40,391 nucleotides of DNA from a virus (Duplodnaviria > Caudoviricetes): positions 1 through 40,391 of IMG/VR virus record IMGVR_UViG_3300038974_000627, one strand, 5' to 3'. The notes beneath the pieces are model-generated. The model was not told the origin of the DNA. It searched no databases and saw nothing but the letters and a program-made list of their open reading frames with translations. Position numbers and translations under genes: made by a program. Positions 16,083-40,391 of this stretch are shown here, piece by piece; the stretch's first letter is position 1; each line of letters starts with the position of its first letter.

Positions 16083-16088
16083 GTTATC

Positions 16089-18880: not shown

Positions 18881-19276
18881 ATGGAACAAAACTATCATGA
18901 TTTTTACAGAGGCGAGATCTACTACGCCTATCTTGAACCGGCTTTCGGCCACGAACAGGGTGGGACTCGTCCAGTCCTCATACTTCAGAACGACGTTGGG
19001 AACTACTTCTCTCCGACACTCATAGTTACAGCAGCTACCACCCAGCGGCACAGGAAAAAGGATCTTCCCACTCATGTTGAGCTGTCAGATGTAGAAGGAC
19101 TTCCGGATATTTCGGTTTTTATGCTGGAAGTACTGCGAACCATTGATAAGCGCCGCATCCGCCGATATGCGGGGAAGCTCACTAAAGAACAGATGGCCAA
19201 GATTGACGAGGCACTACGTATCAGCCTGCGTTTGGACGAGGATGCCTACCTTCCCACAGAAGTGGAGGCCCCGTGA
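18881..19276 (+). CDS. PemK/MazF-family endoribonuclease
   Basis: RGEIYYAYL...GHEQGGTRPVLILQND.GN, LPTHV and E.LRTIDK.R. Confidence 0.93.
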   Translation: MEQNYHDFYRGEIYYAYLEPAFGHEQGGTRPVLILQNDVGNYFSPTLIVTAATTQRHRKKDLPTHVELSDVEGLPDISVFMLEVLRTIDKRRIRRYAGKLTKEQMAKIDEALRISLRLDEDAYLPTEVEAP

Positions 19277-20199
19277 TGAACACAGTTTTGAAGATAGACC
19301 CTGAGTTTGAGTCCATCTGCCCTTCTTTAACGGATGAGGAATATGCGCAACTCGAAGAAAACATTCTGACTGAGGGGCTAATCCTCATGCCGCTCATCGT
19401 ATGGGATGGAACCATCATCGACGGACACAACCGATACAAGATAGCCCAAGCGCATCCCGGCATTGAGTATCGAATACACGAAAAGCATTTCGTGAACCGC
19501 TATGAGGCAATCTCTTGGATATGCAAAAATCAATTAGGACGACGAAACCTTACTGATTTACAAAAGAAGATACTTATCGGCAGACAGTTTGAATCGGAGA
19601 AAGCGGCACATGGTGGAAACCGCAGTACAAGCCGCGATAGTAATGGACAGTTCACCGCAAAACCTCAAACGGAGGTTTTGCGGAACGAGACGACAAGTCA
19701 ACGCATAGCCCGTGAAAACAAAGTAGGTCACGCCTATGTAGAACGTGCAGGCGCATTTGTTCGGGGAATGGATGCAGCAGAGACTCTAATTCCTGGAATC
19801 AGTCAGGAAATCTTTACTGGCGTTATTAATCCATCTGCAAAGGATGTTGCAGCCATCGCTAAAGCCCCTCCCGAAGAAAGGCGTCAGAAGGCTGAGAAAC
19901 TGCGAGTCCCCAGGGAAAAGCCAACACCTCAGCCGATAGGCTCAAGAAAAGAAGCACGGCAGGAGTTGAAGGAAATCCGTGATATCTACGCAGATATGGT
20001 GCAAGGAGAGACTCCGACCCCGGCCAGTGAGGACTCCATCTTGGAAACGCTTCGAGGCGCTGTGACAGATATGATCCGTGTATGCGACACTCTTTTTTCT
20101 GATTTTCCACGTTTGCTGGAAGATAGCACATACAAGGCCAAAGTCATCGAAATCATGCAGGAGCCAAAACAGTATATTTTAGAAATTGAAGGAGAATGA
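19276..20199 (+). CDS. ParB N-terminal-like domain protein
   Basis: LTDEEYAQLEENIL.EG...PLIVW..IIDGHNRY and NQLGRRNL, followed by an HTH-like segment. Confidence 0.85.
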   Translation: MNTVLKIDPEFESICPSLTDEEYAQLEENILTEGLILMPLIVWDGTIIDGHNRYKIAQAHPGIEYRIHEKHFVNRYEAISWICKNQLGRRNLTDLQKKILIGRQFESEKAAHGGNRSTSRDSNGQFTAKPQTEVLRNETTSQRIARENKVGHAYVERAGAFVRGMDAAETLIPGISQEIFTGVINPSAKDVAAIAKAPPEERRQKAEKLRVPREKPTPQPIGSRKEARQELKEIRDIYADMVQGETPTPASEDSILETLRGAVTDMIRVCDTLFSDFPRLLEDSTYKAKVIEIMQEPKQYILEIEGE

Positions 20200-20978
20200 A
20201 CATGAAGCACACAGAAATGCCATATGAAATTATGCTCATCAGCAGCAAAGATCTCATTGTCCCCAAAGCTTATCAGCGGAGGCTTCGTCCATCGCGTGTC
20301 TCTCGTATCGTTTCTGAGTTTGACGAGCATATCGCCAATGAACCGAAGGTGAGTTTTCGTAATGGCTGTTATTACGTGTTCGACGGCCAGCATACCATCG
20401 CCGCCAGAGTAAAGATGAATGGCGGGCGAGATATTCTCATCAGGTGTAAAGTTTACCGTGGGTTGACCGAGAGCGATGAAGCTCTGCTCTTTGCCCAGCA
20501 GACTGGCGAGTCTGCTCCTCTGACTGCCAGTGCCGAGATGAGAGCGCTGATCTTTGCAGGAGATCCGGATGCAACTGCATTCCTTCGCGCCACAGAAGCT
20601 GCGGGCTTCCACCTTGGCTTTGAGCAAGGATGCGGTGCCAAGCGAATTATCTGCATCAACACCGCTTTCTCTGAATTCAAACGGGTCGGTGCAGAACTGT
20701 ACAAAGAGGCTCTTGCCATTCTTATGGCAGCGTGGGGCGGTGCCCCCGAGTCTTTACGGGCAGAGACACTGCTGGGTGTGCTTGCTTTTGTGGAGCTTTA
20801 TCATGGCGATTACAACCGAACCCGCCTTGTAAATAAGCTCCGCAATGTCGATCCAATCTCTATCTACCGTAGTGGCAGGTCGGACGTCAATCTCCCCGGC
20901 ACAAAGAAGTATCTCAATCAGGTCTATCGCATCTACAACGGTGCGAGCAGGAAAGGGACTCTTCCCATTAAGTTTTGA
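20196..20978 (+). CDS. ParB/Srx-superfamily protein (DUF6551-like)
   Basis: YQR, VFDGQHT and EALLF motifs. Confidence 0.75.
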   Translation: MNMKHTEMPYEIMLISSKDLIVPKAYQRRLRPSRVSRIVSEFDEHIANEPKVSFRNGCYYVFDGQHTIAARVKMNGGRDILIRCKVYRGLTESDEALLFAQQTGESAPLTASAEMRALIFAGDPDATAFLRATEAAGFHLGFEQGCGAKRIICINTAFSEFKRVGAELYKEALAILMAAWGGAPESLRAETLLGVLAFVELYHGDYNRTRLVNKLRNVDPISIYRSGRSDVNLPGTKKYLNQVYRIYNGASRKGTLPIKF

Positions 20979-21265: not shown

Positions 21266-21330
21266 TGCGGTTTGGGTATAGCTTTTCCTGATCTTTGATG
21301 GTATTGTGTGTTGCTGAAGGGAGGGGTATT

Positions 21331-22929
21331 ATGACGGCAATCAGCACGGTAATCGGAGCGAATGCACTGGACAAAAACAGAGAGGTCATCTATATCGCTC
21401 CTAAAGCACAAGTCACGCCTATCAGACTGAGAGTCGCCGGTTATGCCCGAGTGAGCAGTGACAGCGATGACCAGCTCAACTCCTACGAAGCGCAACGGCG
21501 GTATTATGCTGACCTTATCATGTCGAATGCGAAATGGGAATATGTTGATGTGTACGCAGACGAGGCGGTCACTGGTACTTCTATCGAAAAGCGCGATGAT
21601 TTCAATCGCATGATGGCTGACTGCAGGCGGGGGAAAATCGACCGGATTATCACGAAGTCGACGAGCCGGTTCGCCCGAAATGTTATGGACTCCCTTGCAT
21701 CTGTCCGTGAATTGAAAGACATCGGCGTGTCCGTCTTGTTTGAAAAGGAGGGAATCGATACTGGTCTTATAACCAGTGAGGTTCTGCTTACGCTTTATTC
21801 CGCATTCGCACAGGAGGAATCGCAGAACATTTCGCAGAACAAAAAGCGCGGCAACAGAATGAGCATGAGGAATGGCGACTATGTGTCTTCCAGTGTTCCT
21901 TACGGTTACCGCCTTGTAGATAAGTTACCGCAAGTTTTTGAACCCGAGGCAGTCATCGTAAAGCGAATCTTTGAAGAGTACCTCTCCGGATGCAACGCCT
22001 ATGAGATTGCCAGAGGGCTGACTGAGGAAGGCATTCCACGCAAGGACGGTGGCGGCAGATGGCGACACAAAACCATCTACTCCATGCTGCGAAATGAGCG
22101 CTACATTGGGGATATGCTCCTCCAAAAGAATTTCAAGACCGATGAGTTGCCTTACAGAAAAGTCAAGAACCGTGGTGAGCTTGAAAAGATATACATATCC
22201 GGCACACACGAGGGAATAATCGATCCCATCTCGTTCAAGCTCGCCAATCTTCTCTTAGAGCAAAAACACAGCGGAGCATCCGGCATCGCAGAGCGCACAT
22301 TCCCTTGGAGTCTGAAAATAAGATGCGGCGAGTGCGGTAAATCATACCGTCGTCGTGTGACTAAGGGCAAGATATACTGGACTTGCCGTCTGCATGATGA
22401 AAGTAGCGATTACTGCGCTGCTGAACGAATTGCCGAGCCGGATATAGATATGGCGTTTGTACGGCTGTATAACAAGCTAAAAGCCAACAGCGAGAAAATC
22501 CTCGTGCCCATGCAGGAACAACTTGAGAAGCTGCGAGATTCTCGTTATATTAACAACCCGGAAATACAAACCATCAACAAACAAATAGCAGAACTCTCAG
22601 AGCAGAATCATGTGATGAACGGGCTTATGGCTCGAGGAATCCTTGATTCTGCTCTCTTTGTATCTCAGCAAGATGATATAAAGAGAAAATTAAGAGCACT
22701 GAAAATTGCTAAATCCAAGCTGCAAAGCGCCCGGGACGATGATGACATCATCGAAAAAACGGAAGACCTAATCGGCATCCTCGACGAAGGCCCTCCACAT
22801 ATCAGTGGCATGGACGAAACGCTGTGCTCAGATATAGTGGAACGGGTAACGGTCAACGGAGATACGCTGACTTTTCAGATAGCGAATGGATTGGAACTCA
22901 AAGAAAGATTAGTGAGGACGGTACGGTAA
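21331..22929 (+). CDS. Large serine recombinase
   Basis: YARVSS, SRFARN, recombinase domain PYGY, Zn ribbon CGECG...WTC, coiled coil. Confidence 0.95.
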   Translation: MTAISTVIGANALDKNREVIYIAPKAQVTPIRLRVAGYARVSSDSDDQLNSYEAQRRYYADLIMSNAKWEYVDVYADEAVTGTSIEKRDDFNRMMADCRRGKIDRIITKSTSRFARNVMDSLASVRELKDIGVSVLFEKEGIDTGLITSEVLLTLYSAFAQEESQNISQNKKRGNRMSMRNGDYVSSSVPYGYRLVDKLPQVFEPEAVIVKRIFEEYLSGCNAYEIARGLTEEGIPRKDGGGRWRHKTIYSMLRNERYIGDMLLQKNFKTDELPYRKVKNRGELEKIYISGTHEGIIDPISFKLANLLLEQKHSGASGIAERTFPWSLKIRCGECGKSYRRRVTKGKIYWTCRLHDESSDYCAAERIAEPDIDMAFVRLYNKLKANSEKILVPMQEQLEKLRDSRYINNPEIQTINKQIAELSEQNHVMNGLMARGILDSALFVSQQDDIKRKLRALKIAKSKLQSARDDDDIIEKTEDLIGILDEGPPHISGMDETLCSDIVERVTVNGDTLTFQIANGLELKERLVRTVR

Positions 22930-23771
22930 TGGCTAAGAACAGAATGCTCCCCTTTGGGTATCGGGTTGAAAGCGGTACCGTAAAGCTTAACGCTCTGGAA
23001 GCGGACACGGTGCGTCGTGTCTTCCGCGAATATGCAATGGGGTCTTCCTATAAGGCAATCGCCGACTCGCTCACAGCAGATGGCATATCCTACCCCCCCG
23101 CAAAGCCTGTGTGGAACAAGAACATGATTGCCCGTCTGGTTCAAAATGAGGATTATCTCGGTACCGATACCTACCCCTCCATAATTGAACATAATGAGTA
23201 TGCGGCTGCAAAAGCGGCACAAAAGCAACTGAATTATACTGAACCGCCTGCGCTTCGCAAAATTGGAAAGCTCCTTGTGTGCGGAGAGTGCGGCCAGCCC
23301 TTGGCGCGCCGCGTACACGCCAACGGACGAACACGTTGGTATTGTAAAAATGATAACCAGCACATCCCGAACGCTGTAACAGATGAGTTTCTGCTGGAAA
23401 CGGTCACCGCACTGCTCTACCGACTTAAGCAAAATCCTAATCTGGTAAAACCGAGCACAGACCGAATCCCAGAGTCAGCATTGAAGCTGGCGCGACTCCA
23501 GAATGAGATTAACGACATCCTCGCTCGCGAAGTCGCTGACGAGGCTGAGGTGAGGAAGTTAATCCTTAGATTAGCAACGGCAAAATATGAAGCCTGCGAT
23601 AATAACTCAGCCACAGCGCTTGCCCTTCAAGAACTACTGAAGGAACATCAGCACGAATCAGATCTGAACCCAGATGTTCTGATGGCAATAACTGATCAAA
23701 TCGTTGTCACCGCGACAGTGACCGTGTCACTGTCACTGAAAAGCGGAGAAACCATATCGGAAGGAGCATGA
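22929..23771 (+). CDS. Recombinase/Zn-ribbon protein lacking the catalytic resolvase domain
   Basis: Begins at PFGY. Contains Y.G...YPSII and CGECG...WYC. TAATG coupling to the upstream gene. Confidence 0.88.
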   Translation: MAKNRMLPFGYRVESGTVKLNALEADTVRRVFREYAMGSSYKAIADSLTADGISYPPAKPVWNKNMIARLVQNEDYLGTDTYPSIIEHNEYAAAKAAQKQLNYTEPPALRKIGKLLVCGECGQPLARRVHANGRTRWYCKNDNQHIPNAVTDEFLLETVTALLYRLKQNPNLVKPSTDRIPESALKLARLQNEINDILAREVADEAEVRKLILRLATAKYEACDNNSATALALQELLKEHQHESDLNPDVLMAITDQIVVTATVTVSLSLKSGETISEGA

Positions 23772-23774
23772 CAT

Positions 23775-25427
23775 ATGTCCGGCCCGGAAAGAGAAGTCAT
23801 TGTAATTCCCGCTACAATCCATCGTGGGAGCAGCAAGAAGCTCGACAGGCAGCTTAATGTTGCCGGATATTGCCGAGTATCGACAGAGCAGGATGAGCAG
23901 CTCATGAGTTATGAGACGCAAAAAAAGTATTATTCAGAGCTGATTGCAAGAACGCCTGAATGGTCTCTTGCGGGAATATATGCTGATTCCGGGATCAGTG
24001 GTGCAACTGCCGAAAAGCGACCGGATTTCATGAAGATGATTCGGCACTGCAAGGCCGGCAAAATCGACCTAATCATAACAAAGTCAATCAGCCGATTTGC
24101 CAGAAATACGCTGGACAGCATCGGTTATGTCCGTAAGCTCAAGGCGATGGGAATTGGCGTCCTGTTCGAGAAAGAGAATATCAACTCTCTCGACTGCACC
24201 AGCGAGGTCATACTCACAATCCTCTCCAGCCTTGCGCAGGAGGAATTGAACTCCCTGTCTTCTAACGTTAAGATGGGAAAACGCATGGCAATGAAGGAGG
24301 GCAAGGACTCGTTCCCGTACTCAACCATCTATGCCTTCAAAAAAGGTGATGATGGCAAACCGGAAATCATCCCGGAGGAAGCCGAGGTCGTCAGACGCAT
24401 ATACAGACGGTATCTTGCTGGTGACAGCATAATTGCCATACGGGATGCATTGGTGAGCGATGGCGTTCCGTCCCCACGAAAAAAAGAGGTATGGACAACA
24501 GCAACGGTCAGAAACATCCTTGAAAATGAGCGTTTCTGTGGGGATGTAATTCTCCAGAAAACCTATGTTACTGATCCAATCAGCAAAAAGGTCAAGAAGA
24601 ACAATGGCGAATTGCCGAAAGTTTTTATCAAGAACAACCACCCGGCGATTATCGAGCGTAGCGAGTTCGAACGCGTTCAACTGGAACACGCAAGGCGCAG
24701 TTCAAAAAGGAAAGTATCGGATAAGGCACAGACTGAGCTTGGAAAGTACAGCAGCATGTATGCGCTCACTGAAATACTTGTCTGCGGCGAATGCGGCACA
24801 CCCTACAAGAGAATCGTGTGGACTACAAGGGGTGTAAAGAAAACGGTGTGGCGCTGTACCAATCGCTATGACCACGGCACGAAATACTGTAAGAACTCAC
24901 CCACACTGGATGAAGAAAGTCTACACGAAGCCATAGTAAGAGCACTTTCAGCGACACGCAGGGAGCGTGCTTCATCAATAGCTTATCTCTCGAACCAACT
25001 TAGCCGCTCATTCGTACAGGTTAACCCAGAGAGTCTCTGCGCAGATCAGCTTGAAGACCAGATTAGAGTCCTGAAAGCACAGGTCATGGAATTAATGACT
25101 GAGAGCATCAGCAAAAACACACTTGCTGAAAACGAAGGCAGGCTCAAAGAGATGTCTGATAGCATAACAGCTCTAAACGAAAGACTGGAAAAGAAAAAAG
25201 AAGCAGATTTGAGTGATGGCGCCGTTGAGAGTCGCCTGTCAGCGATCACGGAAGCGCTGGCGCTGGAGCCAAACCAGATGGGCACATATGATGATAATCT
25301 GGTGCGGCAACTCATAGAAACGATCAAGGTAATAGACAGCGAGAAGCTGCTGATTACGTTTAAAGGCGGGATGCAGTTTGAGCAGGCCATAGCTCCAAAC
25401 ATCCGCAAGATACGGCACTGCCGATAA
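23775..25427 (+). CDS. Large serine recombinase
   Basis: YCRVST, SISRFARN, HPAII, CGECG...WRC. Confidence 0.95.
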   Translation: MSGPEREVIVIPATIHRGSSKKLDRQLNVAGYCRVSTEQDEQLMSYETQKKYYSELIARTPEWSLAGIYADSGISGATAEKRPDFMKMIRHCKAGKIDLIITKSISRFARNTLDSIGYVRKLKAMGIGVLFEKENINSLDCTSEVILTILSSLAQEELNSLSSNVKMGKRMAMKEGKDSFPYSTIYAFKKGDDGKPEIIPEEAEVVRRIYRRYLAGDSIIAIRDALVSDGVPSPRKKEVWTTATVRNILENERFCGDVILQKTYVTDPISKKVKKNNGELPKVFIKNNHPAIIERSEFERVQLEHARRSSKRKVSDKAQTELGKYSSMYALTEILVCGECGTPYKRIVWTTRGVKKTVWRCTNRYDHGTKYCKNSPTLDEESLHEAIVRALSATRRERASSIAYLSNQLSRSFVQVNPESLCADQLEDQIRVLKAQVMELMTESISKNTLAENEGRLKEMSDSITALNERLEKKKEADLSDGAVESRLSAITEALALEPNQMGTYDDNLVRQLIETIKVIDSEKLLITFKGGMQFEQAIAPNIRKIRHCR

Positions 25428-25609: not shown

Positions 25610-25933
25610 TTACGCGAGGCTCTCTTTTTTCTTTTCTATGCGATGAGATCGCAGCATGGTGAGCGCATCTTCGCGCGCACGCTCATCTGCCTCACGGGAA
25701 GCTGTGACCAAATCTGTTTCGTAGGCAGAAAGTGTAGATACAGTGATTTCCTCATTGCCAAGAAGATAATCAACCGTCACGCCGAAGAATGCGGCGAGTT
25801 TTAGAAGCATATCAATCGAGGGCTCTCGGTCGCCCGTCTCATATCTCGAATAAACAGTCGGAGCGCAATCAAGTTTCTCAGAAACAGCCTTCTGTGAAAG
25901 CCCCTTCTGTAAGCGAATTTCCTTAAGTCTCAT
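25610..25933 (-). CDS. XRE-family repressor (cI-like)
   Basis: LSQKAVSEKL...YSRYETGDREP...LAAFFGVTVDYLLG. Confidence 0.92.
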   Translation of the reverse strand: MRLKEIRLQKGLSQKAVSEKLDCAPTVYSRYETGDREPSIDMLLKLAAFFGVTVDYLLGNEEITVSTLSAYETDLVTASREADERAREDALTMLRSHRIEKKKESLA

Positions 25934-25963: not shown

Positions 25964-26051
25964 TGCCGCTCTGGTGCGTTGTAATCACCGATTTGGCATT
26001 TTTAGTATTGACAGCTTACCAATTTGGCATTATCATAATGCCGAGACGGTA
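25964..26051. promoter_or_regulatory. Four TGCC-N5-GGTR operators and a promoter between divergent HTH genes
   Basis: Sites at 25964-76 (+), 25986-98 (-), 26017-29 (-) and 26039-51 (+). TTGACA (26008) -17 nt- TATCAT (26031). Confidence 0.8.
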
Positions 26052-26071: not shown

Positions 26072-26290
26072 ATGAGCTGCATGCGAGATCAGCGAGAAGC
26101 TCGACATATGACGCAGCGAGAACTGGCAGAGGCTACAGGATTGTCTGCCGTCAGTATAAGCCGGTATGAAACTGGTGCGCGCACTCTCTCCGTAGCGAAT
26201 GCTAAGGTAATTGCCTCTGCCTTAAACACTGAGTGGATGAGCTTCTTCGAGGATAGCGACCACGAATCCGAAGGAGTTGAATGCATATGA
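26072..26290 (+). CDS. Cro-like HTH protein
   Basis: MTQRELAEATGLSAVSISRYETGAR. Confidence 0.9.
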   Translation: MSCMRDQREARHMTQRELAEATGLSAVSISRYETGARTLSVANAKVIASALNTEWMSFFEDSDHESEGVECI

Positions 26291-27255
26291 GCAAACCGCG
26301 TACCTATGCATTCTATTCGTCTGTAAAACCTAAAGCGGTTGACTGGCTGTGGTACCCATATATCCCATATGGAAAGCTTACGCTTCTGCAAGGCGATCCC
26401 GGCGAGGGTAAGTCGACAATAATGCTGAATATCGCGGCAGCGATTACCCAGGGCCGACCAATGCCTGACGGGTTTGCCTTTGGTGAGGCTCACAGCGTTG
26501 TGTACCAGTGCGCCGAGGATGACGCGGCAGATACTGTAAAGCCGCGGCTCATGGCTGCAGGCGCTGACTGCGGCAAGGTGGCGTATATCATTGATGAGGA
26601 CAGATCATTGACATTGGATGATAGCCGCCTCGAAAAAACGATAGCTCAGACACATGCCAGACTTCTTATCCTTGACCCGATACAATCCTTTCTTGCTCAA
26701 GACGGAGATATGCAAAGTGCTGGCAAGATGAGAAGCGTACTTAGCAAACTGTCCATGATAGCGGCTAAGCACAAATGCGCCGTTGTTCTCGTCGGACACA
26801 TGAACAAAACACAGGGCGGAAAAAACCTATATCGCGGTCTCGGCAGCATAGATATTGCGGCAATCGCCAGAAGCGTTCTCATGGTTACCAGAGACGAATC
26901 AGATCCGCAAATACGTTATCTGCATCCAATCAAATCAAGCCTCGCGCCAGAAGGCCCGCCCATCGGCTTCTCATTCGACAAGGAAACCGGCTTTCAATGG
27001 ATAGGGCCGTGCGAAGTCAATGTTCCCGGTGAGGAAATAGATGGGCAGATGGATGAGAGCAAAAGCGAGACAGCAATGCAGATGCTTCTGGAGTTGCTGT
27101 CCGAAGGCGATGCCCCCAGTGCCTCGATATTCTATAAAACGAACCAGATGGGCATATCCCGCAGAACGGTCCAGACCGTCAAAAAGGAACTTGGGATAAA
27201 GGCGTACAAAAAAGAAAACGCATGGTATTGGACGTTGCCAGAGGTGGTCAAATGA
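26287..27255 (+). CDS. AAA_25/RepA-like ATPase or helicase
   Basis: WLWYPYIP.GKLTLLQGDPGEGKS, AED, LLILDP, HMNK, GSIDI..ARS. C-terminal wHTH-like segment. Confidence 0.9.
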   Translation: MSKPRTYAFYSSVKPKAVDWLWYPYIPYGKLTLLQGDPGEGKSTIMLNIAAAITQGRPMPDGFAFGEAHSVVYQCAEDDAADTVKPRLMAAGADCGKVAYIIDEDRSLTLDDSRLEKTIAQTHARLLILDPIQSFLAQDGDMQSAGKMRSVLSKLSMIAAKHKCAVVLVGHMNKTQGGKNLYRGLGSIDIAAIARSVLMVTRDESDPQIRYLHPIKSSLAPEGPPIGFSFDKETGFQWIGPCEVNVPGEEIDGQMDESKSETAMQMLLELLSEGDAPSASIFYKTNQMGISRRTVQTVKKELGIKAYKKENAWYWTLPEVVK

Positions 27256-27761
27256 GCGCAATGCCCAACGAGAACGGAAAAGTCAAGGTGGCGGGATATG
27301 TGAAGCTTGCCAAGCTATGGGAGCGTAGCCGTGACGAGGCGATAGCTTTTCACTCTTCATATTATGCGAACAAATACTCAGATTCATCGCAGTTCCAGCT
27401 TGTTGGGACATACATTGATATCACTGGCAAAAAGGAAATTCGGCAGCGTCCTGAAATGCTCCGGCTCATTCGTGATTGCTCTCTTGGCAAAGTCGAATGC
27501 ATTGATGAGCTGACAAGCGGATATCTGGCGGCGAATGCCAAGGAGTTTAGTTACCTTATAAAGATGCTGTTTGAGATGGGTAACGGCATCCAGATTCTAA
27601 CGGAAGATAAAGCGTACAACATTAACACCATCGAAGATGAGGATGCCCAACGCGAAGCTCTTTACAAAATGGCATCTGAATTGGTGGCTCTGGCCCCTGA
27701 TGACTATAATCAATGGAGCGCTAAGGTCATTACGGGTATGGATCACTTAGCAGGAGAGTAA
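27252..27761 (+). CDS. Degenerate resolvase-like domain protein
   Basis: VAGYVKLA replaces Y.RVS. Retains YID..G...RPEM.RLIRDC..GK. Confidence 0.75.
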   Translation: MSAMPNENGKVKVAGYVKLAKLWERSRDEAIAFHSSYYANKYSDSSQFQLVGTYIDITGKKEIRQRPEMLRLIRDCSLGKVECIDELTSGYLAANAKEFSYLIKMLFEMGNGIQILTEDKAYNINTIEDEDAQREALYKMASELVALAPDDYNQWSAKVITGMDHLAGE

Positions 27762-27781
27762 AAACAGGAGATGACGCCATC

Positions 27782-29803
27782 ATGGACGATATCAAGGAAA
27801 CACAATATACGGAGGCTGCCGGGGATGCCGAGACTTCAGTTGACGCGAGTGTGACACCTTCAGAAAGCTCAGATAAGTCTCGCGATTTAATTGAGCGCCC
27901 GTGGCGGCCACAGGATGCAGACAGAGACAGTCTCAAGTACGCGATTCGCCAGCGAGTTAGGAATACGACAGCGTCTCCTAATGCTGTCATCATATATCCA
28001 GACCCTACGCCTACAATACAAGATGAGGACGAAAAGCGAGTTGCTGTATATGCTCGTGTCAGCACAAAAAGCACGGAGCAAGTCTCTTCGATAGAAAACC
28101 AGACGAAGTATTACACGGAGAAAGTCGAGCAGACTCCGAATTGGGAGCTGCAGCAGATATATAGTGATGAGGGCAAGTCTGGAACTTCAATAAAAAAGCG
28201 CACGGAGTTCATGCGGATGATGCAGGATGCTGCAGACAACAAGATGGATCTTATCCTGTGCGCAAGCGTATCCAGATTTGCCAGAAACATTGCCATCTGC
28301 ACAGAACAGCTGCGCCTGCTTCGGACACAAAACCCATCCCACCCGGTCGGAGTTTACTTCGAAACTGAAAACATATATACGCTCGACCCTAAGAGCAGCC
28401 AGTCTTTATCAATCCACGCCATGCTTGCTGACTGGGAGTCGGCACAAAAGAGCAGCCGCATGATTTTATCTTACGACCAACGCATCTGCATGGGGCAATA
28501 TCCTATATCAGATTTACTGGGATATCGACATACGCCCGACGGCCAACTCATCATACAAGAAGACGAGGCTATTACAGTTCGGTTTGTCTTTCTGGCTTAC
28601 ATCTGCGGATATTCGCTACCTGAGATTGCTCAGATCCTGACGGAAAAGGGTAGAAAGACGCTAAAGGGCAATACGACATGGGATTCTCGAATGGTAAAGG
28701 AGATCATGCTGAACGAGCGGCGCTGGGGCGACCTCGACGTTAGAAAAAGGATCGTCATTGACTACGTCGAGGGCAAAACAATAAAGAATATCAAGACAAG
28801 AGTCAAGGCTTTCGTCCCGGCTCATCATGAGGGCATTGTAACGCCGGAACTCGCAAAAGCGGCGCATTGCGTATTCGCAAATACCCGCGCGACAGGTGGC
28901 GTGTCGGAACTGAATGTCATAGAGAGTGGGGCGTTGAAGGGCTTCGTGAGCATTTGCCCAACGTGGGGCGGCATCAGCGCAGACATTATAAAGCAGATCA
29001 GTCGAGGTGTATATACTGAAGCTGAGTTTGACGAGCTCCAGCAGAAAGCTCGAATCTTCTCAGGAGGACAACACAGTAATGTCCTCTCGATGCAATTAAC
29101 AGGCTATGAAGTACCACATGGCGTTTTCTTCATAAACAGGAGCACATCAACAATAACGCTCTCGCCGTCTCGCATACAGTTCAGCAAATCAAGCCATATA
29201 AACCTTGGCCAGAGTGAATCGGTCGAGATACTGTATCATCCATTTCTCCAAGCCTTGGTGATACGTGCTTGTGACTCCAATTCACCAAACGCTTTCAAGT
29301 GGGAAAATGACAACGGGGAAATCGTGACGAGCATTGCGGCAAGGGCATTCTGTGGCGCGATATATGATGAGATGATGTGGATGCATCAGTACAAGTTCAA
29401 GTTCCGGGGGATTACCAGAACGCGAGGCAACGCTAAGATGCTTATGTTCTATCTGGATGAACCTCAGATCCTGCCGGGCAAAAGAAAGCAACCGCAGGAA
29501 GACAGCCTCTCAATCGATGAAGCCCAAAGTGCAGTGAAGTATATTCCATACAAACGAGATAGCGTTGATCATGGTACCGAGGATGTGGAGGCTGATATAA
29601 CGTATGCTTACCCAGATGTCTGGGGTGGCACAACAGTTGGTTCGAGCTACGCTGCACGTAAGCTCCGCGACACAATCATTGATACTCTTACGGAAGAAGA
29701 CATCTCAATTCAAGGCACAGCGGTGTTGAATCCGATGATCGGAGAGATCCCCACCAGAGAGGAATTACTCAGGGAAGTAGACCAATTGCTCATGTCGATG
29801 TGA
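27782..29803 (+). CDS. Large serine recombinase with atypical C-terminal domain
   Basis: YARVST, SRFARN, LLGY, HEGIV. No CxxC Zn ribbon after the recombinase domain. Confidence 0.92.
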   Translation: MDDIKETQYTEAAGDAETSVDASVTPSESSDKSRDLIERPWRPQDADRDSLKYAIRQRVRNTTASPNAVIIYPDPTPTIQDEDEKRVAVYARVSTKSTEQVSSIENQTKYYTEKVEQTPNWELQQIYSDEGKSGTSIKKRTEFMRMMQDAADNKMDLILCASVSRFARNIAICTEQLRLLRTQNPSHPVGVYFETENIYTLDPKSSQSLSIHAMLADWESAQKSSRMILSYDQRICMGQYPISDLLGYRHTPDGQLIIQEDEAITVRFVFLAYICGYSLPEIAQILTEKGRKTLKGNTTWDSRMVKEIMLNERRWGDLDVRKRIVIDYVEGKTIKNIKTRVKAFVPAHHEGIVTPELAKAAHCVFANTRATGGVSELNVIESGALKGFVSICPTWGGISADIIKQISRGVYTEAEFDELQQKARIFSGGQHSNVLSMQLTGYEVPHGVFFINRSTSTITLSPSRIQFSKSSHINLGQSESVEILYHPFLQALVIRACDSNSPNAFKWENDNGEIVTSIAARAFCGAIYDEMMWMHQYKFKFRGITRTRGNAKMLMFYLDEPQILPGKRKQPQEDSLSIDEAQSAVKYIPYKRDSVDHGTEDVEADITYAYPDVWGGTTVGSSYAARKLRDTIIDTLTEEDISIQGTAVLNPMIGEIPTREELLREVDQLLMSM

Positions 29804-29828
29804 CAGGCACGAATGAATGGAGGCAGCC

Positions 29829-30614
29829 ATGGACAGCGAAATGCAAACGAAATTAGACACGGAACAAAACGAGAAAAAAGGAACCGCCTACTCTGCCAAG
29901 GAGCAGGAGCTTATTCATCAGCTTGTTCAAGCGCGCTTGGAGCAGAAGGAAGACTTGCCGTTTGAGAACCTCGACGGCTACGAGCTCCCACCAAGGACTC
30001 AGTTCTCTATGCTTAAGAAGCCGGCAGTAAGCATCAAGTACGGGCGTTTCACCTGCAACATGGCATGCATCCGGCTGTTCGAAGGAGTCAGATACATACT
30101 GCCCATTGTAAACCGCGAGAAAAAGCGACTCGCTATTGTCACATGCGCGGAAGAAGAAAGTGCTTCTGTGGAGTGGGCGCGACCGAAAGAAGAATCATGG
30201 GTCAACAAGGATATTACCTCGCTCGAGTTCATCAAAAAGATATTCGACCTGATGGGTTGGGACGACAAATGCAGATATAAGGCGCTTGGTCGCATTGCCG
30301 CCTCACCGCGGGGTTTGATACTCGTCTTTGACCTCGAGGAATCCATCATGTTTACACCTACTCCGATAGAGTATGTCGACAAAAATACTGGTGAAATCAA
30401 AAAACGCCAAGTGAAATACTATCCAGACGAGTACAAAGACTGCATTGGAAAGTCTTATAATGACTATGCCGCAAGCCAGCAGTTGAACCTCTTCGAAGCC
30501 TTTGACGGTTATGCGGCTCAAACTGGAGAAGCTGCAATGCCAATTGCAGCTTCTCCAGAAAGACCACCAGCAAATGCTCTCGTGAACGGAAATGGTGGCG
30601 GATATGATTATTGA
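29829..30614 (+). CDS. Recombinase-associated protein, paralogous to the recombinase C-terminal domain
   Basis: LDGYELP...PAVSI aligns with LTGYEVP...STITL of the upstream gene. GGAGG before ATG 29829. Confidence 0.8.
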   Translation: MDSEMQTKLDTEQNEKKGTAYSAKEQELIHQLVQARLEQKEDLPFENLDGYELPPRTQFSMLKKPAVSIKYGRFTCNMACIRLFEGVRYILPIVNREKKRLAIVTCAEEESASVEWARPKEESWVNKDITSLEFIKKIFDLMGWDDKCRYKALGRIAASPRGLILVFDLEESIMFTPTPIEYVDKNTGEIKKRQVKYYPDEYKDCIGKSYNDYAASQQLNLFEAFDGYAAQTGEAAMPIAASPERPPANALVNGNGGGYDY

Positions 30615-30993
30615 TAACGAGACCCCGAACGGAAAGATTAAGAGTACTCGAATCGCTATATCAATACAGGGTTATCGTAATGCCATAAGCATAGGCAAAG
30701 AAGTCGTTCACGTGCTTGGTAATCCTCCTTATATCTGCCTGCGGGTAAATGACACATATAAATCAGTCGCAATATCGCCGTGTGAGCCAACAGAGGTTCT
30801 CTCATTCAAAACACCGGAGAACCTATTCACAAACCGGCATGTTGTCTTCCGCATCTATAGTCAGGAGTTTATAAAAGGGCTGCTTCGTGCCAACGGATTA
30901 GACACAGAACAATCATACTCGTTGAAGGGCACCTATTCAGAAAAAAACAATGCTGTAGTTTTCAGCTTTGATGAAGTCCAGAGAGAGGGGTAG
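30604..30993 (+). CDS. Small recombinase-associated protein (third copy of the same domain)
   Basis: Shares the I..C, F(I)..I/L, Y...G and VF pattern with the two upstream proteins. Confidence 0.75.
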   Translation: MIIDNETPNGKIKSTRIAISIQGYRNAISIGKEVVHVLGNPPYICLRVNDTYKSVAISPCEPTEVLSFKTPENLFTNRHVVFRIYSQEFIKGLLRANGLDTEQSYSLKGTYSEKNNAVVFSFDEVQREG

Positions 30994-30997: not shown

Positions 30998-31360
30998 ATG
31001 AGCGGTGGTCGATTTAATTACGCAAATGACAGCTTGTGCGAAGAAATCTTTGGCTGGAATCTTCACCCTGACTATGGCGAAAAAGGCTTCAGCAAATCGG
31101 CTGAAGCACGGAAAATCAACCCACTGAAAGATGCTGAGTTATCCGAAATGGTGTATGATATGTTCTGCGTTCTGCACAGCTTCGACTGGTGTGCATCGGG
31201 AGATACTGGGGAAGAAACATACATAAGCGATGTCAGCCGATTCAAAAAGAAGTGGCTAAAGGTCACCGCCGAGCAGCGGTACAAACGGCAAATTGACCTT
31301 CAGCTTGAGGAATGCCGAAACGATCTATATCGGATTTTTGGCGTTGAAGAAAACGAATAG
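30998..31360 (+). CDS. Hypothetical protein (starts MSGGRFNY)
   Basis: GAGGGG RBS. Lies within the plus-strand gene run. Confidence 0.75.
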   Translation: MSGGRFNYANDSLCEEIFGWNLHPDYGEKGFSKSAEARKINPLKDAELSEMVYDMFCVLHSFDWCASGDTGEETYISDVSRFKKKWLKVTAEQRYKRQIDLQLEECRNDLYRIFGVEENE

Positions 31361-31371
31361 CGAGGTGTTTC

Positions 31372-32259
31372 ATGTACTATCTCACCGGAGATATCCACGG
31401 CGATGTACGTCGGCTTCTTAATGATTTCAAGCGTTATGATATACAGTCAACCGACACCGTCATCCTCCTCGGCGATGTGGGCCTAAACTACTACGGGAGC
31501 GACCGAGGCGATAATAAGTCAAAGAAGTTCCTCAATAAGCAAGGGGTCACGGTGTTCTGCATCCACGGAAACCATGAAATGCGTCCCGAGACAATTGCAT
31601 CATACGAGGAAACGAAATGGAATGGCGGTGTCGTGTACTATGAGCCTGCATATCCAAACCTTCTGTTTGCCAAGGACGGCGAGGTGTTCGACCTTGACGG
31701 ATACAGGGTGGTTGTTATTGGCGGCGCTTATTCAGTGGACAAGTTCTATCGGCTACAGCGTGGAATGTCGTGGTTCGATGATGAACAGCCGTCTGCTGAA
31801 ACAAAGGCCCGTGTAGAGCATAACTTGGATGCTGTGGGGTGGATGGTCGACTGTGTTTTGTCTCACACCTGCCCAGCGCGATACACGCCCACAGAGGCAT
31901 TCCTGTCTGGCTTAGACCAAAGCTCCGTAGATAGAAGCACGGAAGAATGGCTGGACTCAATTGAAGAACGCCTTTGCTATGGCTCTTGGTTCTGCGGGCA
32001 CTGGCACATAGAAAAGCACATTGACAAAATGTACTTCTTGATGAAAAGTTACGAGGCGCTGGCGCCGCTCGAGGACTATACCATACCAGTCGATGAGCAG
32101 ACATTTCGTGACTTCACGGCGTTATGCGAAAGAAAACATACCTCCGTAGATATTGTCACACGTGCAATGTTCCGTTATTTCATTGATCCAAAGAATCGGG
32201 AAACGATAAAGCGATGGGCTGATGAATTTCGTGAAAGGGAGTGCTCCGAAAATGAGTGA
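31372..32259 (+). CDS. Calcineurin-like metallophosphoesterase with RHH-like C-terminal extension
   Basis: GDIHG, GD, GNHE, SHTCP and GHWH. Confidence 0.92.
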   Translation: MYYLTGDIHGDVRRLLNDFKRYDIQSTDTVILLGDVGLNYYGSDRGDNKSKKFLNKQGVTVFCIHGNHEMRPETIASYEETKWNGGVVYYEPAYPNLLFAKDGEVFDLDGYRVVVIGGAYSVDKFYRLQRGMSWFDDEQPSAETKARVEHNLDAVGWMVDCVLSHTCPARYTPTEAFLSGLDQSSVDRSTEEWLDSIEERLCYGSWFCGHWHIEKHIDKMYFLMKSYEALAPLEDYTIPVDEQTFRDFTALCERKHTSVDIVTRAMFRYFIDPKNRETIKRWADEFRERECSENE

Positions 32260-32500
32260 ATCGCTTGATCTCAGCAAGTGCTACAGGGTAACTCGTGAAG
32301 AGTTTCAAGCTAATGTGGACTGCATGCTGGAAAAGGTAGAATCCGGCTGTAGTCCCATTTTGATATATACGGAGGGAAAGCCGGATCTTCTTCTCTTCGG
32401 CTGGTCTGACTACTTAGAACGCTTCGGATGCCTCTATACTGCTGAACAAATCGCAGAGATTGAGGAAGCTTGCCGGAACTACAAAGAGCAAGACGAGTAA
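32252..32500 (+). CDS. Phd/YefM antitoxin-like protein
   Basis: VTREEFQANVDCMLEKV...PILI..EGKPDLLL pattern. Confidence 0.6.
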   Translation: MSESLDLSKCYRVTREEFQANVDCMLEKVESGCSPILIYTEGKPDLLLFGWSDYLERFGCLYTAEQIAEIEEACRNYKEQDE

Positions 32501-32536
32501 CCCATAGCAGCTAAATACTATAGAGGAGGGCTTTGA

Positions 32537-33085
32537 ATGGTCTACTTCACCGCTGATCTCCATATCGGGCATGCGAATATCCTTAAACATACCAACAGGC
32601 CCTTCGCGTCTGTGGATGAGATGAACAAGGCTCTTTGCGATAACTGGAACCGACGAGTCAATCGCAACGACACTGTATTTATTCTCGGCGACTTTTTCTT
32701 CCGCAATACAGTTCCTGCAAACGAATATCTTCAACGGCTGAAAGGCAAGAAACACCTGATTATCGGGAACCATGACAAGGGCTGGATGAAAAAGGCGGAT
32801 CTCGACCGCTTCTTCTTGAGCGTTCAGCATTTTGCGGAACTAAGTGATGGCAATCACAAGCTGGTGCTTTGCCATTATCCGCTCATGACATGGAACGGTG
32901 CCAGCCGAGGACGATATTTGATCCACGGCCACATTCATGACAATACCGACAGCGAATACTGGCCTCTGCTTTGCGGTATGCCAAACGCTTTGAATGCAGG
33001 AGTGGAGATTAACGGCTACGCGCCGGTAACATTCGATGAATTGGTCGCCAATAATGTGGCTTTCAAGGAGGCAAACATCACATGA
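32537..33085 (+). CDS. Calcineurin-like metallophosphoesterase (short type)
   Basis: ADLHIGH, LGD, GNHD, HYP and HGHIH. Confidence 0.93.
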   Translation: MVYFTADLHIGHANILKHTNRPFASVDEMNKALCDNWNRRVNRNDTVFILGDFFFRNTVPANEYLQRLKGKKHLIIGNHDKGWMKKADLDRFFLSVQHFAELSDGNHKLVLCHYPLMTWNGASRGRYLIHGHIHDNTDSEYWPLLCGMPNALNAGVEINGYAPVTFDELVANNVAFKEANIT

Positions 33086-33825
33086 TCTTTATTACCGGCG
33101 ATACCCACGGTGAGTATGAGCGTTTTTCAAGCCAGAACTTCCCTGAACAGAAGCGACTGACAAAAGAAGATTACGTTATCATTTGTGGTGACTTTGGAAT
33201 ATGGGACGACAGTCCAAGCGAGCGGTATTGGTTCAAGTGGCTGGACGAGAAACCGTTCACCACGCTGTTCGTCGATGGGAATCACTCGAATTATGACCTT
33301 CTGGCGCGGTACCCGGTTAATGAGTGGCACGGCGGCAAGGTTCAGTTTATCCGACCATCACTCATTCACCTCATGCGCGGACAGGTATACGATATCGGCG
33401 GTCACTCCTTCTTTACAATGGGTGGTGCCAGCTGTCACGATATCGGTGATGGCATACTCGATCCGGATGCACCTGATTTTGCCGAGCAGTATAAGCGACT
33501 TGCAGCACGCAGAGCCATGTTCCGCATCAATCACCGTTCGTGGTGGAAAGAGGAACTCCCATCCGACGAGGAATACGCAATAGCGAGGGAAAGCCTGACG
33601 CAGCACGACATGGAGGTTGACTACATCATCACGCATTGTGCGCCGAACAGCATCGCCCAGCTCATTACCGGGTCGTTGTATCAGCCGGACGCCCTCACAG
33701 CGTTCCTCGAGGAAGTGAAAGAACAGTGCAAATACCGATACTGGTTTTTTGGGCACTACCATGAAAATGCGGTTATCGCGCAGAAGCATGTGGTTCTGTA
33801 TGAACAGATAATCGAATTGAATTGA
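33082..33825 (+). CDS. Calcineurin-like metallophosphoesterase
   Basis: GDTHG, CGDFG, DGNH, THCAP and GHYH. Confidence 0.93.
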   Translation: MIFITGDTHGEYERFSSQNFPEQKRLTKEDYVIICGDFGIWDDSPSERYWFKWLDEKPFTTLFVDGNHSNYDLLARYPVNEWHGGKVQFIRPSLIHLMRGQVYDIGGHSFFTMGGASCHDIGDGILDPDAPDFAEQYKRLAARRAMFRINHRSWWKEELPSDEEYAIARESLTQHDMEVDYIITHCAPNSIAQLITGSLYQPDALTAFLEEVKEQCKYRYWFFGHYHENAVIAQKHVVLYEQIIELN

Positions 33826-33860
33826 TGAAATCGCCACGCGGCAGATGGAGGTGAGGTGGC

Positions 33861-34412
33861 ATGCTTTCAAGAGCAGCATTCATTTCAGCAATAAAAAAGA
33901 TTCGGGCACAGGAAGCAGCAGTTGAAGAATTCAACATGGCGATTAGAAAGCTCAGCGACGGTATCACCACCTTCGATATTGATAACCAGTACCTCGAAGC
34001 GTTGCGTGATGTGCTTTCGGAGGCCATGCACGACACAGGCGACTGGATCGGATGGTGGCTGTTTGAGGCCAGCGATTATATGGTCTCATGGGACGAGGAT
34101 GGGAAAGAGGTCAGCGTCAATCTTGAAGATGTAAATGACCTGTACGATTTCATGGTGAATAATGCCGTCACACTTACGGATGAGCAGCTCCCAATGACGG
34201 ATATGCAGTTCGGCATGGGAGTGTCCCCAGCATGCGCTCAAAAGTCTGTTGAATACTGCGAATACACGAATTGCTTTGACCGTATCACGCATTATGTGAG
34301 GGACAACAATGTCGCACTTCATATAACTGAAAACGGCGAATCGCAATACGTTCTCATGAACACAAAAATGTGGAACCAGCACATTTCCAGAAGTTCAGCA
34401 AAAGAGGGTTAA
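33861..34412 (+). CDS. Hypothetical protein with Phd/YefM-like C-terminal segment
   Basis: C-terminus F..I...V......ITENGESQYVLMN. GAGGTG RBS. Confidence 0.65.
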   Translation: MLSRAAFISAIKKIRAQEAAVEEFNMAIRKLSDGITTFDIDNQYLEALRDVLSEAMHDTGDWIGWWLFEASDYMVSWDEDGKEVSVNLEDVNDLYDFMVNNAVTLTDEQLPMTDMQFGMGVSPACAQKSVEYCEYTNCFDRITHYVRDNNVALHITENGESQYVLMNTKMWNQHISRSSAKEG

Positions 34413-34415
34413 CAC

Positions 34416-34721
34416 ATGGATGGATATGACAAGCTCCTCGGCGACATATGCGACATCGTGGATCAAATGAATGGCCTGCGAGATATCGCGTATAAGCATT
34501 ACGCGACCTTGGTAGCAGACGTCATCGCAGATCAAATCACTGATATCAAAGCTATAGAGAAAATCATGGATGGCCTCTGTGATTTCGGTGATGAGAAGCG
34601 GTTTTTAGATTTATACAGATCGCTCTGTAGGCACGTCTATTACAGGTATCCGGAGATCGTAGGCGAACATATCGTCCTGTTCAGGATGCAGTGGATGACA
34701 AAAGACGATGAGCTTGAGTGA
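34416..34721 (+). CDS. Hypothetical protein
   Basis: 101-aa ORF with GAGG RBS, in operon context. Confidence 0.7.
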   Translation: MDGYDKLLGDICDIVDQMNGLRDIAYKHYATLVADVIADQITDIKAIEKIMDGLCDFGDEKRFLDLYRSLCRHVYYRYPEIVGEHIVLFRMQWMTKDDELE

Positions 34722-34750
34722 AACTTATTCATACTTTAGGAGTGTATGGC

Positions 34751-34921
34751 ATGGATGAACTGACAAATACAGAACTGGCTACCCGCCTTCGTGATAATGC
34801 AGAATGGTGTGAGGCCAATGAGTGGGAGATACCGATTTGTATGGGAGATGACCAGCGCGAAGCAGCTGATCGTCTGGAAGCAATGGCGAAAAGGCTCGAT
34901 GAGTTAGGGGCGAGAAAGTGA
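34751..34921 (+). CDS. Small hypothetical protein
   Basis: AGGAG before ATG 34751 (GTG 34718 is an alternative start). GTGA overlap with the next gene. Confidence 0.6.
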   Translation: MDELTNTELATRLRDNAEWCEANEWEIPICMGDDQREAADRLEAMAKRLDELGARK

Positions 34922-36159
34922 AAGCACCAGGAGTTAAGCACTATATTCATGTTCTGAAAAGCCACAATTACAGGAGCGTTGACAACAGCAGCTCATATGA
35001 TGAACACACCTACGAACTGCTGGATGAGATATTTGAACTGTTAAAAAGGGTATCGCCGGTATCGCATAACGGAGCGTGGGAGCTGTGGTTTACAGTTGAA
35101 CGCGGTACCATCGAAGACTTCGGGGATTTCAAAGAGATGCTCGAAGACGGTGAGGTCGAAAGCCGCGAAGAATTTGAGCAGTTTTGGAAAGACGAGTTCC
35201 CGAATGAAACCGAATGGTATCGGTTCACAGCAGTCGAGGACATCGATATTGGATACCGTGCAATCTCCGTTGGGAATAAGTTTGTCATCGAGGATGACTC
35301 CCGTAAGCAACGCACAACTTTCCCGTATGACATCTCCGAATTCACTGAATGGATTCGAGACAGTATCAAAAACTGTATTGCTGATCTTGAGAATGGCACT
35401 TACAACGAGCGCATCCAGCGCGAACTGCCGCCGCAGCATCGGACAGGTACAATCATTCGCAAATATCTATGGGACGTTTTCCCTGAAGCAAGGGAGTCGT
35501 TTTTCAAAGATATCTCGCATCTGGATATCGACGAGTTCGTCAAGTGCGCCAACGAGCAAACTGACAATCCTACCGACTTGAAAGGTCGAATTTCGAGAAT
35601 GACCGCAAACGACTTCTACGCCTATTGCGCTCTCGGATATAAGGCCAACAACTATGAGGGAACGGATCTACCGCTTCGCATACAGTACGAAAAGCATGCT
35701 GATGGTCGGGATGACGGATTAGGTGAAATCGATCCGGGTTCTGCCGAGGATTTTCACGCTTGGCTTTGTGATAGGAATCTGCGCGGTGGTCATCCGTGGG
35801 AAGTGTGTCGCGGTGGTAACTCGACGCACATCAGCCTCCATGTTGGCATCGATGGCGATGGCTACTATCTCAGTGTCGCAGGCGATGCATGGAGCAGAAC
35901 CATTGAATCCGTTAAGTTCTATCTCGCCCTGCGGCGAGAGGGGCTCCCGGTTTTCATGCACGAAGCTAAAATACTGGCGGACCGATTGACAGGAAAAGAG
36001 AAAATCGGAATCGTTCCCGATGGAGTAATGCCGGCGTATTGCGAGAGCCTTTTCCCCGGAGAGAAGGTAATCGACTTTATGAATCTTCCATATGAAAATC
36101 GGGACGAGATGGTCAAGCATTGTGTGTGGTATCAAGAGAAAGAAGTCTTACTTGTTTAA
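34918..36159 (+). CDS. Hypothetical protein, 413 aa
   Basis: Long ORF containing ADGRDDGL and GGHPWEV.RGGNSTHI, which look like conserved motifs. Confidence 0.85.
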   Translation: MKAPGVKHYIHVLKSHNYRSVDNSSSYDEHTYELLDEIFELLKRVSPVSHNGAWELWFTVERGTIEDFGDFKEMLEDGEVESREEFEQFWKDEFPNETEWYRFTAVEDIDIGYRAISVGNKFVIEDDSRKQRTTFPYDISEFTEWIRDSIKNCIADLENGTYNERIQRELPPQHRTGTIIRKYLWDVFPEARESFFKDISHLDIDEFVKCANEQTDNPTDLKGRISRMTANDFYAYCALGYKANNYEGTDLPLRIQYEKHADGRDDGLGEIDPGSAEDFHAWLCDRNLRGGHPWEVCRGGNSTHISLHVGIDGDGYYLSVAGDAWSRTIESVKFYLALRREGLPVFMHEAKILADRLTGKEKIGIVPDGVMPAYCESLFPGEKVIDFMNLPYENRDEMVKHCVWYQEKEVLLV

Positions 36160-36354
36160 TACGATATCTGAAATCGCTCCTAATAGAGCTTTTTTCCATC
36201 AAGCATAACATGAGTTGCCGCTCGAGGGAGAACAACCGTTTTTCAGAGGTTTGGACTGAAATGTTGCCCAAAGCAAAACGCCACATCACTCAGCAAAAGG
36301 GTTTATAAACAGGTGCCATAATTATAACCCATATTTTATGGAGAGGAGACAACA

Positions 36355-36579: not shown

Positions 36580-36695
36580 CATTTGATACTGGTATTCAGA
36601 TTGAACCAGCAGTTCAATGACATTCCCGGCGGCATCCGATAAAATACAACCATGATGAAGTTATCGATACAAACGGACGAATAGGAGTGAATTAT

Positions 36696-40070: not shown

Positions 40071-40391
40071 CCTTTCGAAATACAGCGTGAAAGCTTACTT
40101 TACCTTGTAAAGATAACATTGGGATGGATTGTTGGAGAAGGGGCACAGAGGCAATTCAGATTATATGAAGGCAAAGTGGTCGAAATCGACTACTTTGGGA
40201 CATCGAAAGTTCGAATCCCCCTTGTCTGACTTTTTTCAAATGTCATCATTTTTGAGCAATTGGCACAATTTTTTATGAAAAGTCCGGGGTTCCCCGGATT
40301 TTTCAGCATTTTATATGGTTTTTGCCTGCCATACAAGACGAAACCGTCCCTCTACGTTCTTTAAACTCTAGAAATCATATAGTATTTTTAC

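Follow-up and report, generated by a model that had tools for sequence, protein, structure and literature searches.

How does a large serine recombinase set its site and direction when the zinc ribbon is missing, and what do two paralogues of its own tail contribute? This question is raised by a module in a 40,391-nucleotide (nt) stretch of DNA from IMG/VR, IMGVR_UViG_3300038974_000627, referred to here in its entirety as the window; all coordinates are positions in it unless another locus is named. Large serine recombinases are known as single-protein tools in which a zinc ribbon and a coiled coil set site choice and direction. The module differs from this plan, encoding an AAA_25 ATPase, a resolvase-like protein without the catalytic Ser, a 673-amino-acid (aa) recombinase without a zinc ribbon, and two small proteins of 265 and 133 aa that repeat a domain from the recombinase tail. 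It apparently represents a form of large serine recombinase not described before, distinguished by a new domain in three copies and by a dead twin that is optional.

One domain in three consecutive proteins

The domain spans about 120 residues and is present in the recombinase tail, the 265-aa protein and the 133-aa protein. A preliminary description of this DNA had claimed that the three segments are homologous. Single-sequence BLASTP gave a weak match between the recombinase and the 265-aa protein (E 0.002), in the register proposed there, and nothing significant for either pair involving the 133-aa protein. With shallow full-length alignments, HHalign returned probabilities of 97.5 and 88.1 for two pairs and a non-significant 3.2 for the recombinase and the 133-aa protein. 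Deeper, domain-only alignments connected all three pairs, with probabilities of 99.6, 97.0 and 97.7 (E 1.9e-23, 9.5e-11 and 1.7e-12) and scores of 134, 61 and 69, far above the maximum of 19 reached by column shuffles (30 per pair). The three segments are one homologous domain, as claimed. Profiles built from each copy and run against the open reading frames (ORFs) in the window and in the first 52 loci match module genes only; in a larger locus set, they match 348 of 2,824 plus-strand ORFs. No family in Pfam, NCBIfam or PHROGs covers the domain or the two small proteins, the larger of which also carries a conserved C-terminal extension. The gene positions given previously (27222/27252-27761, 27782-29803, 29817/29829-30614 and 30592/30604-30993) agree with the ORF list.

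The recombinase matches the Resolvase (PF00239, E 3.8e-22) and Recombinase (PF07508, E 1.2e-11, above cut-off) families. PF13408 (Zn_ribbon_recom), present in all three recombinases encoded upstream, gives no match to it, and neither DUF4368 nor a zinc ribbon is detected at E 0.05. Tyr90, Arg92 and Ser94 are invariant across 22 recombinase sequences, and the catalytic YxRxS is kept in 107 of 108 full-length relatives, none of which (0/108) has a CxxC past residue 300. Across eight loci, the catalytic and recombinase parts are 42-89% identical to the window's protein, versus 26-66% for the new domain. In these sequences, the domain stands in place of the zinc ribbon, which upholds one half of the earlier proposal that it replaces both zinc ribbon and coiled coil. 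On the coiled coil there is a low-confidence model (mean pLDDT, the predicted local distance difference test, of 65, with residues 569-622 unresolved) that places only short helices past the recombinase domain (400-426 and 623-672).

The upstream gene aligns with the resolvase catalytic domain (HHalign probability 93), and its motifs confirm that it encodes a resolvase-like domain devoid of the catalytic Ser. Y-V-K-L-A stands opposite Y-A-R-V-S of the recombinase, with Ala (27309-27311) at the catalytic Ser position, and the second catalytic motif reads YLAAN versus RFARN, with the catalytic arginines replaced. The Ser-less motif is conserved in 43 of 44 relatives, and a near-identical copy of the 44th reads Y-V-K-R-A; thus, no relative has Ser. 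A DNA-binding domain was sought in this protein, and no helix-turn-helix (HTH) family was found at E 0.05. A second Ser-less lineage, consisting of a 198-200-aa resolvase domain with Y-I-R-Y-F (Phe for Ser), lies directly upstream in five phage-type loci and is homologous to that of the window (probability 97).

Structure prediction provides a lead to the fold of the domain. The model of the 133-aa protein (pLDDT 91.7) contains a beta-beta-alpha-beta-beta unit twice in one chain, and the model of the recombinase tail has a similar order of elements. In a structure search against 48,161 chains, MraZ ranked first (Z 4.1, root-mean-square deviation (rmsd) 3.6 over 89 residues), and in a second structural comparison of the 133-aa model MraZ chains again came first (Z 4.8, rmsd 3.2, 87 residues). 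Overall, the MraZ matches cover 87-89 residues at rmsd 3.1-3.8 and 3-12% identity, and B3 DNA-binding domains score below them (Z 2-3). Foldseek against the PDB gave MraZ at E 0.14 (probability 0.75) and nothing at E 0.001. The swapped-hairpin proteins MraZ and AbrB/SpoVT, together with B3, are the best structural matches, and the model resembles them in its two beta-beta-alpha-beta-beta units; the module's domain differs in being fused to, or encoded beside, a recombinase, and the resemblance stays below Z 5 with no Pfam match. Three points weigh against an MraZ-like fold: Z scores under 8 fall in the range that the tool calls common, none of 103 domain members matches the AbrB or MraZ Pfam family at E 0.1, and profile comparison does not align one half of the domain with the other. 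The earlier suggestion of an AbrB-like domain is thus weakly supported as regards fold, with MraZ the best match, and does not extend to family membership. Because the predicted fold is MraZ/AbrB-like, the domain is predicted to bind DNA. Searches of the ESM Atlas returned unnamed clusters or no usable match, and one cluster (255 aa, 542 members) has the domain's fold fused to HTH_3 (template-modelling score, TM, 0.77). Complex prediction for the 265-aa and 133-aa proteins scored 0.01 (mark 0.32), which is uninformative either way.

Conservation, exchange and control of the module

As an operon, the module is conserved among the mobile elements of Clostridia. Its 265-type gene forms 1,419 clusters at 90% identity and its 133-type gene 719 representatives at 50% identity; the 265-type gene marks the module in 3 of the 301 genomes sampled across the phylum (including the centre itself) and in 12 of 201 genomes of one family. 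The family also occurs in gut prophages of Candidatus (Ca.) Heliusvirales. Gene order was read from 117 loci fetched through the 265-type gene, many of them near-identical, so that the counts overstate independence. The order recombinase, 265-type, 133-type is exact in 91, and partial extra copies are added in seven; the remaining 19 have one or two members or a cut recombinase, which contig edges may explain in some of them. Among the 100 loci with 2.5 kb of upstream sequence, AAA_25 lies upstream in 94, the dead resolvase in 41 and neither in three.

Three layouts recur. Layout A, that of the window, comprises AAA_25, the dead resolvase and the three core genes; layout B has AAA_25 and the core genes without the dead resolvase. 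Layout C, found in prophages (including two Ca. Heliusvirales records), consists of an HTH gene, the core genes and a pair encoding a 308-aa protein and DUF6551, and this module faces the phage's own recombinases. The pair directly follows the 133-aa gene in the phage versions (L050 5802-7692, L052 16986-18883). Coupling to the AAA_25 ATPase, which had been proposed as part of the mechanism, is not obligatory, since the phage versions and two genome loci lack the ATPase. Over an identity range of 90% to about 30%, all three domain copies persist in the same order, whereas the ATPase and dead resolvase come and go; therefore, the constant core is the live recombinase plus two paralogues of its tail.

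This constancy bears on the idea that the recombinase acts alone with its own domain copy, the two small proteins being separate DNA-binding regulators derived by duplication. MraZ and AbrB are transcription factors (according to PDB titles and general knowledge), and the Atlas cluster fused to HTH_3 points the same way. However, the three copies remain in order across a range of identities over which the ATPase and dead resolvase vary, and a catalytically dead resolvase domain has been kept in two forms, making independent regulators an unlikely explanation.

The module is also exchanged as a block. DNA shared between loci L021 and L032 begins at the HTH gene and ceases where the 133-type gene ends; starting from the same gene, sharing stops just before the 133-type gene between L065 and L056, and inside it between L065 and L053. 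Because the shared DNA spans only the HTH gene to about the 133-type gene, the module is portable among elements with different attachment sites. Block exchange, the occurrence of the module in either orientation relative to its companion recombinases, variable cargo on both sides and the partial extra copies behind the module could also be explained by a hitch-hiking sub-element or a low-specificity serine transposase that brings along its own replication ATPase; either would settle near the ends of larger elements and shuffle cargo. This explanation is improbable: the edges of the exchanged block have no common end sequence, and the partial copies begin at differing places, fitting ordinary homologous recombination between tandem elements. 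Tandem elements that have left extra 3' parts of a module, of the same or another layout, were seen in L025, L028, L034, L038, L049 and L075.

A divergent repressor-like gene and operator-like repeats over the promoter (Table 1) suggest that the operon is inducible, behind a repressor-type switch, with the 14-bp direct repeats as likely operators. By eye, a similar promoter and repeat layout is present in L016, L007 and L194, and other clades have paired inverted repeats of variable sequence at the corresponding place. In one group, a 45-bp palindrome directly 3' of the 133-type gene was considered as an attachment site and rejected, being the promoter and operator of the next HTH gene. Elsewhere in the window, genes for a LexA-like S24 peptidase, a Y-family polymerase, an HTH protein and an M78 peptidase (13463-16838) form a possible damage-induced switch for the element.

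Element ends and the enzymes that serve them

The right end of the element is carried by five metagenome contigs. Two contigs share 1,489 and 470 identical bases with the window and diverge from it after 40267-40268; contigs from three of four runs, from different studies, diverge there, one with a new flank, and the fourth run continues like the window. The window's right end was seen with four different hairpin flanks, a related end with three and another related end with one. A strong hairpin opens each of the seven folded flanks, at -18 to -28 kcal/mol compared with a background of -10.1 (sd 4.3, n=1,091), and six of the seven pass a terminator filter, set after the flanks were seen, that 1.5% of the background passes. 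One flank recurs in nine copies in five viral loci, where three follow tRNA-like 3' ends in CCA (by eye), two follow another CCA and four are tandem repeats; ARAGORN called no whole tRNA at these copies. A non-coding stretch at about 40170-40260 is common to relatives. The GTTCGAATCC motif was considered as a plain tRNA remnant and rejected, as no CCA follows it at tRNA spacing.

The left end is not within the window, with contigs of all four runs passing base 1, and neither a tRNA nor a left arm was found in eight related loci. The window seems to hold the right-hand 40 kb of a larger island extending past base 1. Searches for empty sites or further ends were negative in 151 genomes, in another 39 genomes, in phage records and in viral contigs, and elsewhere gave only short chance-level matches, the pattern being missing in four of five records. 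No tRNA adjoins the module in 12 of 13 further module loci.

Another serine recombinase accompanies the module in 73 of the 78 loci with more than 7 kb upstream. In the window, this place is taken by a trio with zinc ribbons, in the middle (315-aa) member of which Pfam detects no resolvase domain. Two contrasts separate these companions from the module. L021 (layout A) and L065 (layout B), whose module enzymes are 35% and companions 71% identical, have an AA core and left arm in common. L021 and L032 have module enzymes that are 81% identical and companions that are 26% identical, and their ends differ; the same is true of L065 and L053 (85% and 23%). Modules only 35-36% identical thus have common ends where the companion recombinases are related. 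The L032 and L053 groups, with companions 33-34% alike, have a different end in common, CTTGACATC, and the end of the module-relative was not found in up to 9.5 kb downstream. The gene that received several insertions at one codon at the L021/L065 ends is presumably UDP-glucose dehydrogenase. We take the ends in L057, L061, L074, L090, L056, L069 and L106 to lie within capsule-sugar genes, namely UDP-glucose dehydrogenase (two sites), an epimerase and an acetyltransferase. A candidate remnant of an rRNA-methyltransferase gene at the shared site TGTCTACTC was rejected, L057 showing that the site is a left arm joined to the 5' part of a gene. Because the ends follow the companions and not the module in both contrasts, the earlier idea that the repeated domains set target choice is not supported; the companion trio is likely the integrase of the element.

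The reading that we favor, with a probability of roughly 0.4, is that the companions integrate the element and that the module is a later-induced, multi-subunit machine for excision or circle resolution. Under this scheme, the ordinary companion recombinases would choose the insertion site, and the repressor-controlled module proteins would assemble into one machine. Upon induction, the three domain copies may attach to DNA, wrap it and keep the synapse together, a task performed in phage integrases by the zinc ribbon and coiled coil. By pairing with its live counterpart, the dead catalytic domain could act as a structural or damping subunit, and the ATPase, which can be lost, would serve replication or loading. 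Such a machine would help the element to excise or to resolve its circles.

Several observations weigh against this excision or resolution role. No companion is in view in 5 of the 78 loci, L194 has none over 40 kb, and a serine-type end without a nearby companion follows the 133-type gene by about 200 bp in L008, L013, L005 and L014. Both contrasts come from clades whose enzymes are 46-48% and 32-36% identical to that of the window; in the window's own clade, trio and module always occur together (4/4) and are not separable. A second, tRNA-targeting clade shows no companion on its module contigs, though its genomes have 2-20 recombinase-domain matches each. Moreover, no excised or dimeric form was seen in contigs of the four runs, and the cut site of the module recombinase was not found.

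The second clade, with an enzyme 52% identical to the window's, bears on a different assignment. Its 25-bp inverted arms with a TG/CA core lie about 200 bp past the module and abut the CCA of tRNA-Asn or tRNA-Thr; a 2-bp core with inverted arms is a hallmark of serine recombinases. The 27 arm contexts divide into 16 TG, 9 CA and 2 others; nine TG arms meet a tRNA 3' end, and the CA arms meet a hairpin (six) or another arm (three). Arms of the window's clade and of the second clade have TTTTTG in common eleven bases before the core, and, against 11,101 background sites, the window-clade arms rank within the top 1.6%, 1.2% and 12%, a weak likeness to the second clade. These data, the four hairpin flanks of the one window end, the flank preceded elsewhere by tRNA-like 3' ends and the four companion-free ends just noted would suit a module that is itself the integrase in the window's clade, cutting at CA, with MraZ-like subunits that read a feature common to tRNA genes and so allow insertion at any tRNA CCA end. 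Related data do point to insertion of the element at tRNA CCA ends. As the function of the module, however, this is doubtful: the ends track the companions in both available contrasts, the arms resemble each other weakly, the recombinase-domain matches of the second-clade genomes include trios (two beside AAA_25 at contig ends), and among 201 genomes the arms occur in 15, just three of which have a 265-type profile match.

Arm pairs also bound segments of 0.8-3.1 kb with cargo genes only. Such recombinase-less segments, with one to three cargo genes, 25-bp inverted arms and a CA/TG core, were seen in L169-L173, L175 and L014 (family of G005); some are tandem and near tRNA 3' ends, in an integron-like layout. 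A bolder proposal, which we consider unlikely, is a four-subunit serine recombinase with MraZ-like targeting subunits in place of the zinc ribbon. These subunits would guide the element to the CCA end of any tRNA gene without disrupting that gene, and the enzyme would also mobilize small recombinase-less cassettes in tandem arrays; if true, this would be a serine counterpart of Tn7-type target selection. Since an exact end and several target flanks are in hand, the function of the module is directly testable.

Features of the window and relation to known systems

Table 1. Coordinates of the module, its control region, its companions and the right end of the element within the window
Feature	Position	Strand	Remark
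308-aa protein and DUF6551 gene	19273..20978	+	precede the recombinase trio
Companion serine recombinase trio with zinc ribbons	21295..25427	+	544, 315 and 550 aa
Divergent HTH_3 repressor-like gene	25610..25933	-	left edge of the block exchanged between elements
Promoter-like TTGACA (26008) and CATAAT (26034) with two 14-bp direct repeats (25987-26000, 26018-26031)	25987..26039	+	
Small HTH_3 gene, putatively Cro-like	26072..26290	+	operon head
AAA_25 ATPase	26281..27255	+	first large operon gene; optional across the family
Ser-less resolvase-like catalytic domain	27252..27761 (ORF from 27222)	+	ATG at 27252 overlaps the AAA_25 stop
Large serine recombinase, 673 aa	27782..29803	+	catalytic domain with Ser94 (28061-28063), recombinase domain, no zinc ribbon
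Domain copy 1	29087..29479	+	recombinase residues 436-566
265-aa protein	29817..30614	+	domain copy 2 at residues 49-180 (29961-30356)
133-aa protein, domain alone	30592..30993	+	domain copy 3 at residues 18-130
Subterminal palindrome and GTTCGAATCC motif	40171..40222	+	conserved in ends of related elements
Right element end	40242..40267	+	24-bp arm and crossover dinucleotide CA (40266-40267)

Although the record is classed as a virus, no virion gene was found among the 52 window ORFs scanned with Pfam. Directly 3' of the module lie three genes for calcineurin-like phosphoesterases (31372-33825), and such genes also flank the module in L016, L022, L052 and L203-L205. A close relative (L001 at 2907) is without 6 kb of cargo (window 31149 to 37122); its 130-aa gene is cut, and the junction shows no obvious repeat. 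Defence-like cargo (2553-5428, 9160-11205 and 39207-39719) comprises an ADP-ribosylglycohydrolase, a WYL regulator, a DinG-like helicase and a YspA SLOG protein, and a MazF-type toxin gene is present along with a weak, distant match to a Phd-type antitoxin (18881-19276 and 32222-32500). Short stretches with branching contigs (in several runs) or jumps in depth, at 18650-18690 and 37390-38110, mark repeated or mobile pieces within the element.

No publication on the domain or the operon was found in a literature search whose coverage left out most subscription journals and supplements. In the available text of one study, tRNA-end sites are given for tyrosine integrases and serine-integrase sites lie within genes (PMC5704250). 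The main text of another does not contain the words "recombinase", "integrase" or "resolvase" and mentions a common invertase (PMC11283538).

Among known systems, the Ccr complex of the staphylococcal cassette chromosome (SCC), with CcrA/CcrB, the Cch helicase and three short proteins, resembles the module in that a single block holds an ATPase gene, a pair of recombinase-type genes and small conserved genes, and in the presence of recombinase-less cassettes in tandem. CcrA and CcrB are described as a heterotetramer in the available text of PMC10581047. The module differs in that its recombinase scores far below the NCBIfam cut-offs for CcrA, CcrB and CcrC (81, 61 and 38 bits versus 900, 900 and 700), its first partner is a Ser-less single domain, and its small genes are paralogues of the enzyme's tail. 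Moreover, Ccr is the integrase of its element, whereas in the window's element the integrase seems to be another gene set. The multi-targeting TndX/TnpX clade (DUF4368) is similar in that its elements occupy many unrelated sites; the module recombinase differs in having neither DUF4368 nor a zinc ribbon. According to the available text of PMC10083194, DUF4368 occurs in 63% of this clade, so that its absence does not exclude membership; the main text of that paper does not use the word "tRNA".

Phage-type large serine integrases, such as those of phiC31, Bxb1 and TP901-1 and the clostridial conjugative-transposon recombinase 3g13, share the YxRxS catalytic and recombinase domains and ends with a 2-bp core and arms of about 25 bp. 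From these, the module is set apart by the lack of a zinc ribbon, by a new domain repeated in two partners and by a dead catalytic partner. In the resolvases of Tn3/gamma-delta, and in Sin acting with HU, direction is imposed by non-catalytic subunits and DNA-wrapping partners. The mechanism proposed here for the module is of this kind; the module differs in having a recombinase of the large type, and no res site was found. In this widespread family, the active site persists, the zinc ribbon is gone, and the enzyme is accompanied by two paralogues of its new tail and, in many cases, by a dead twin. Either outcome would be informative: a serine recombinase would be given its direction by a new route, or targeting subunits would prove separable and could be re-aimed.

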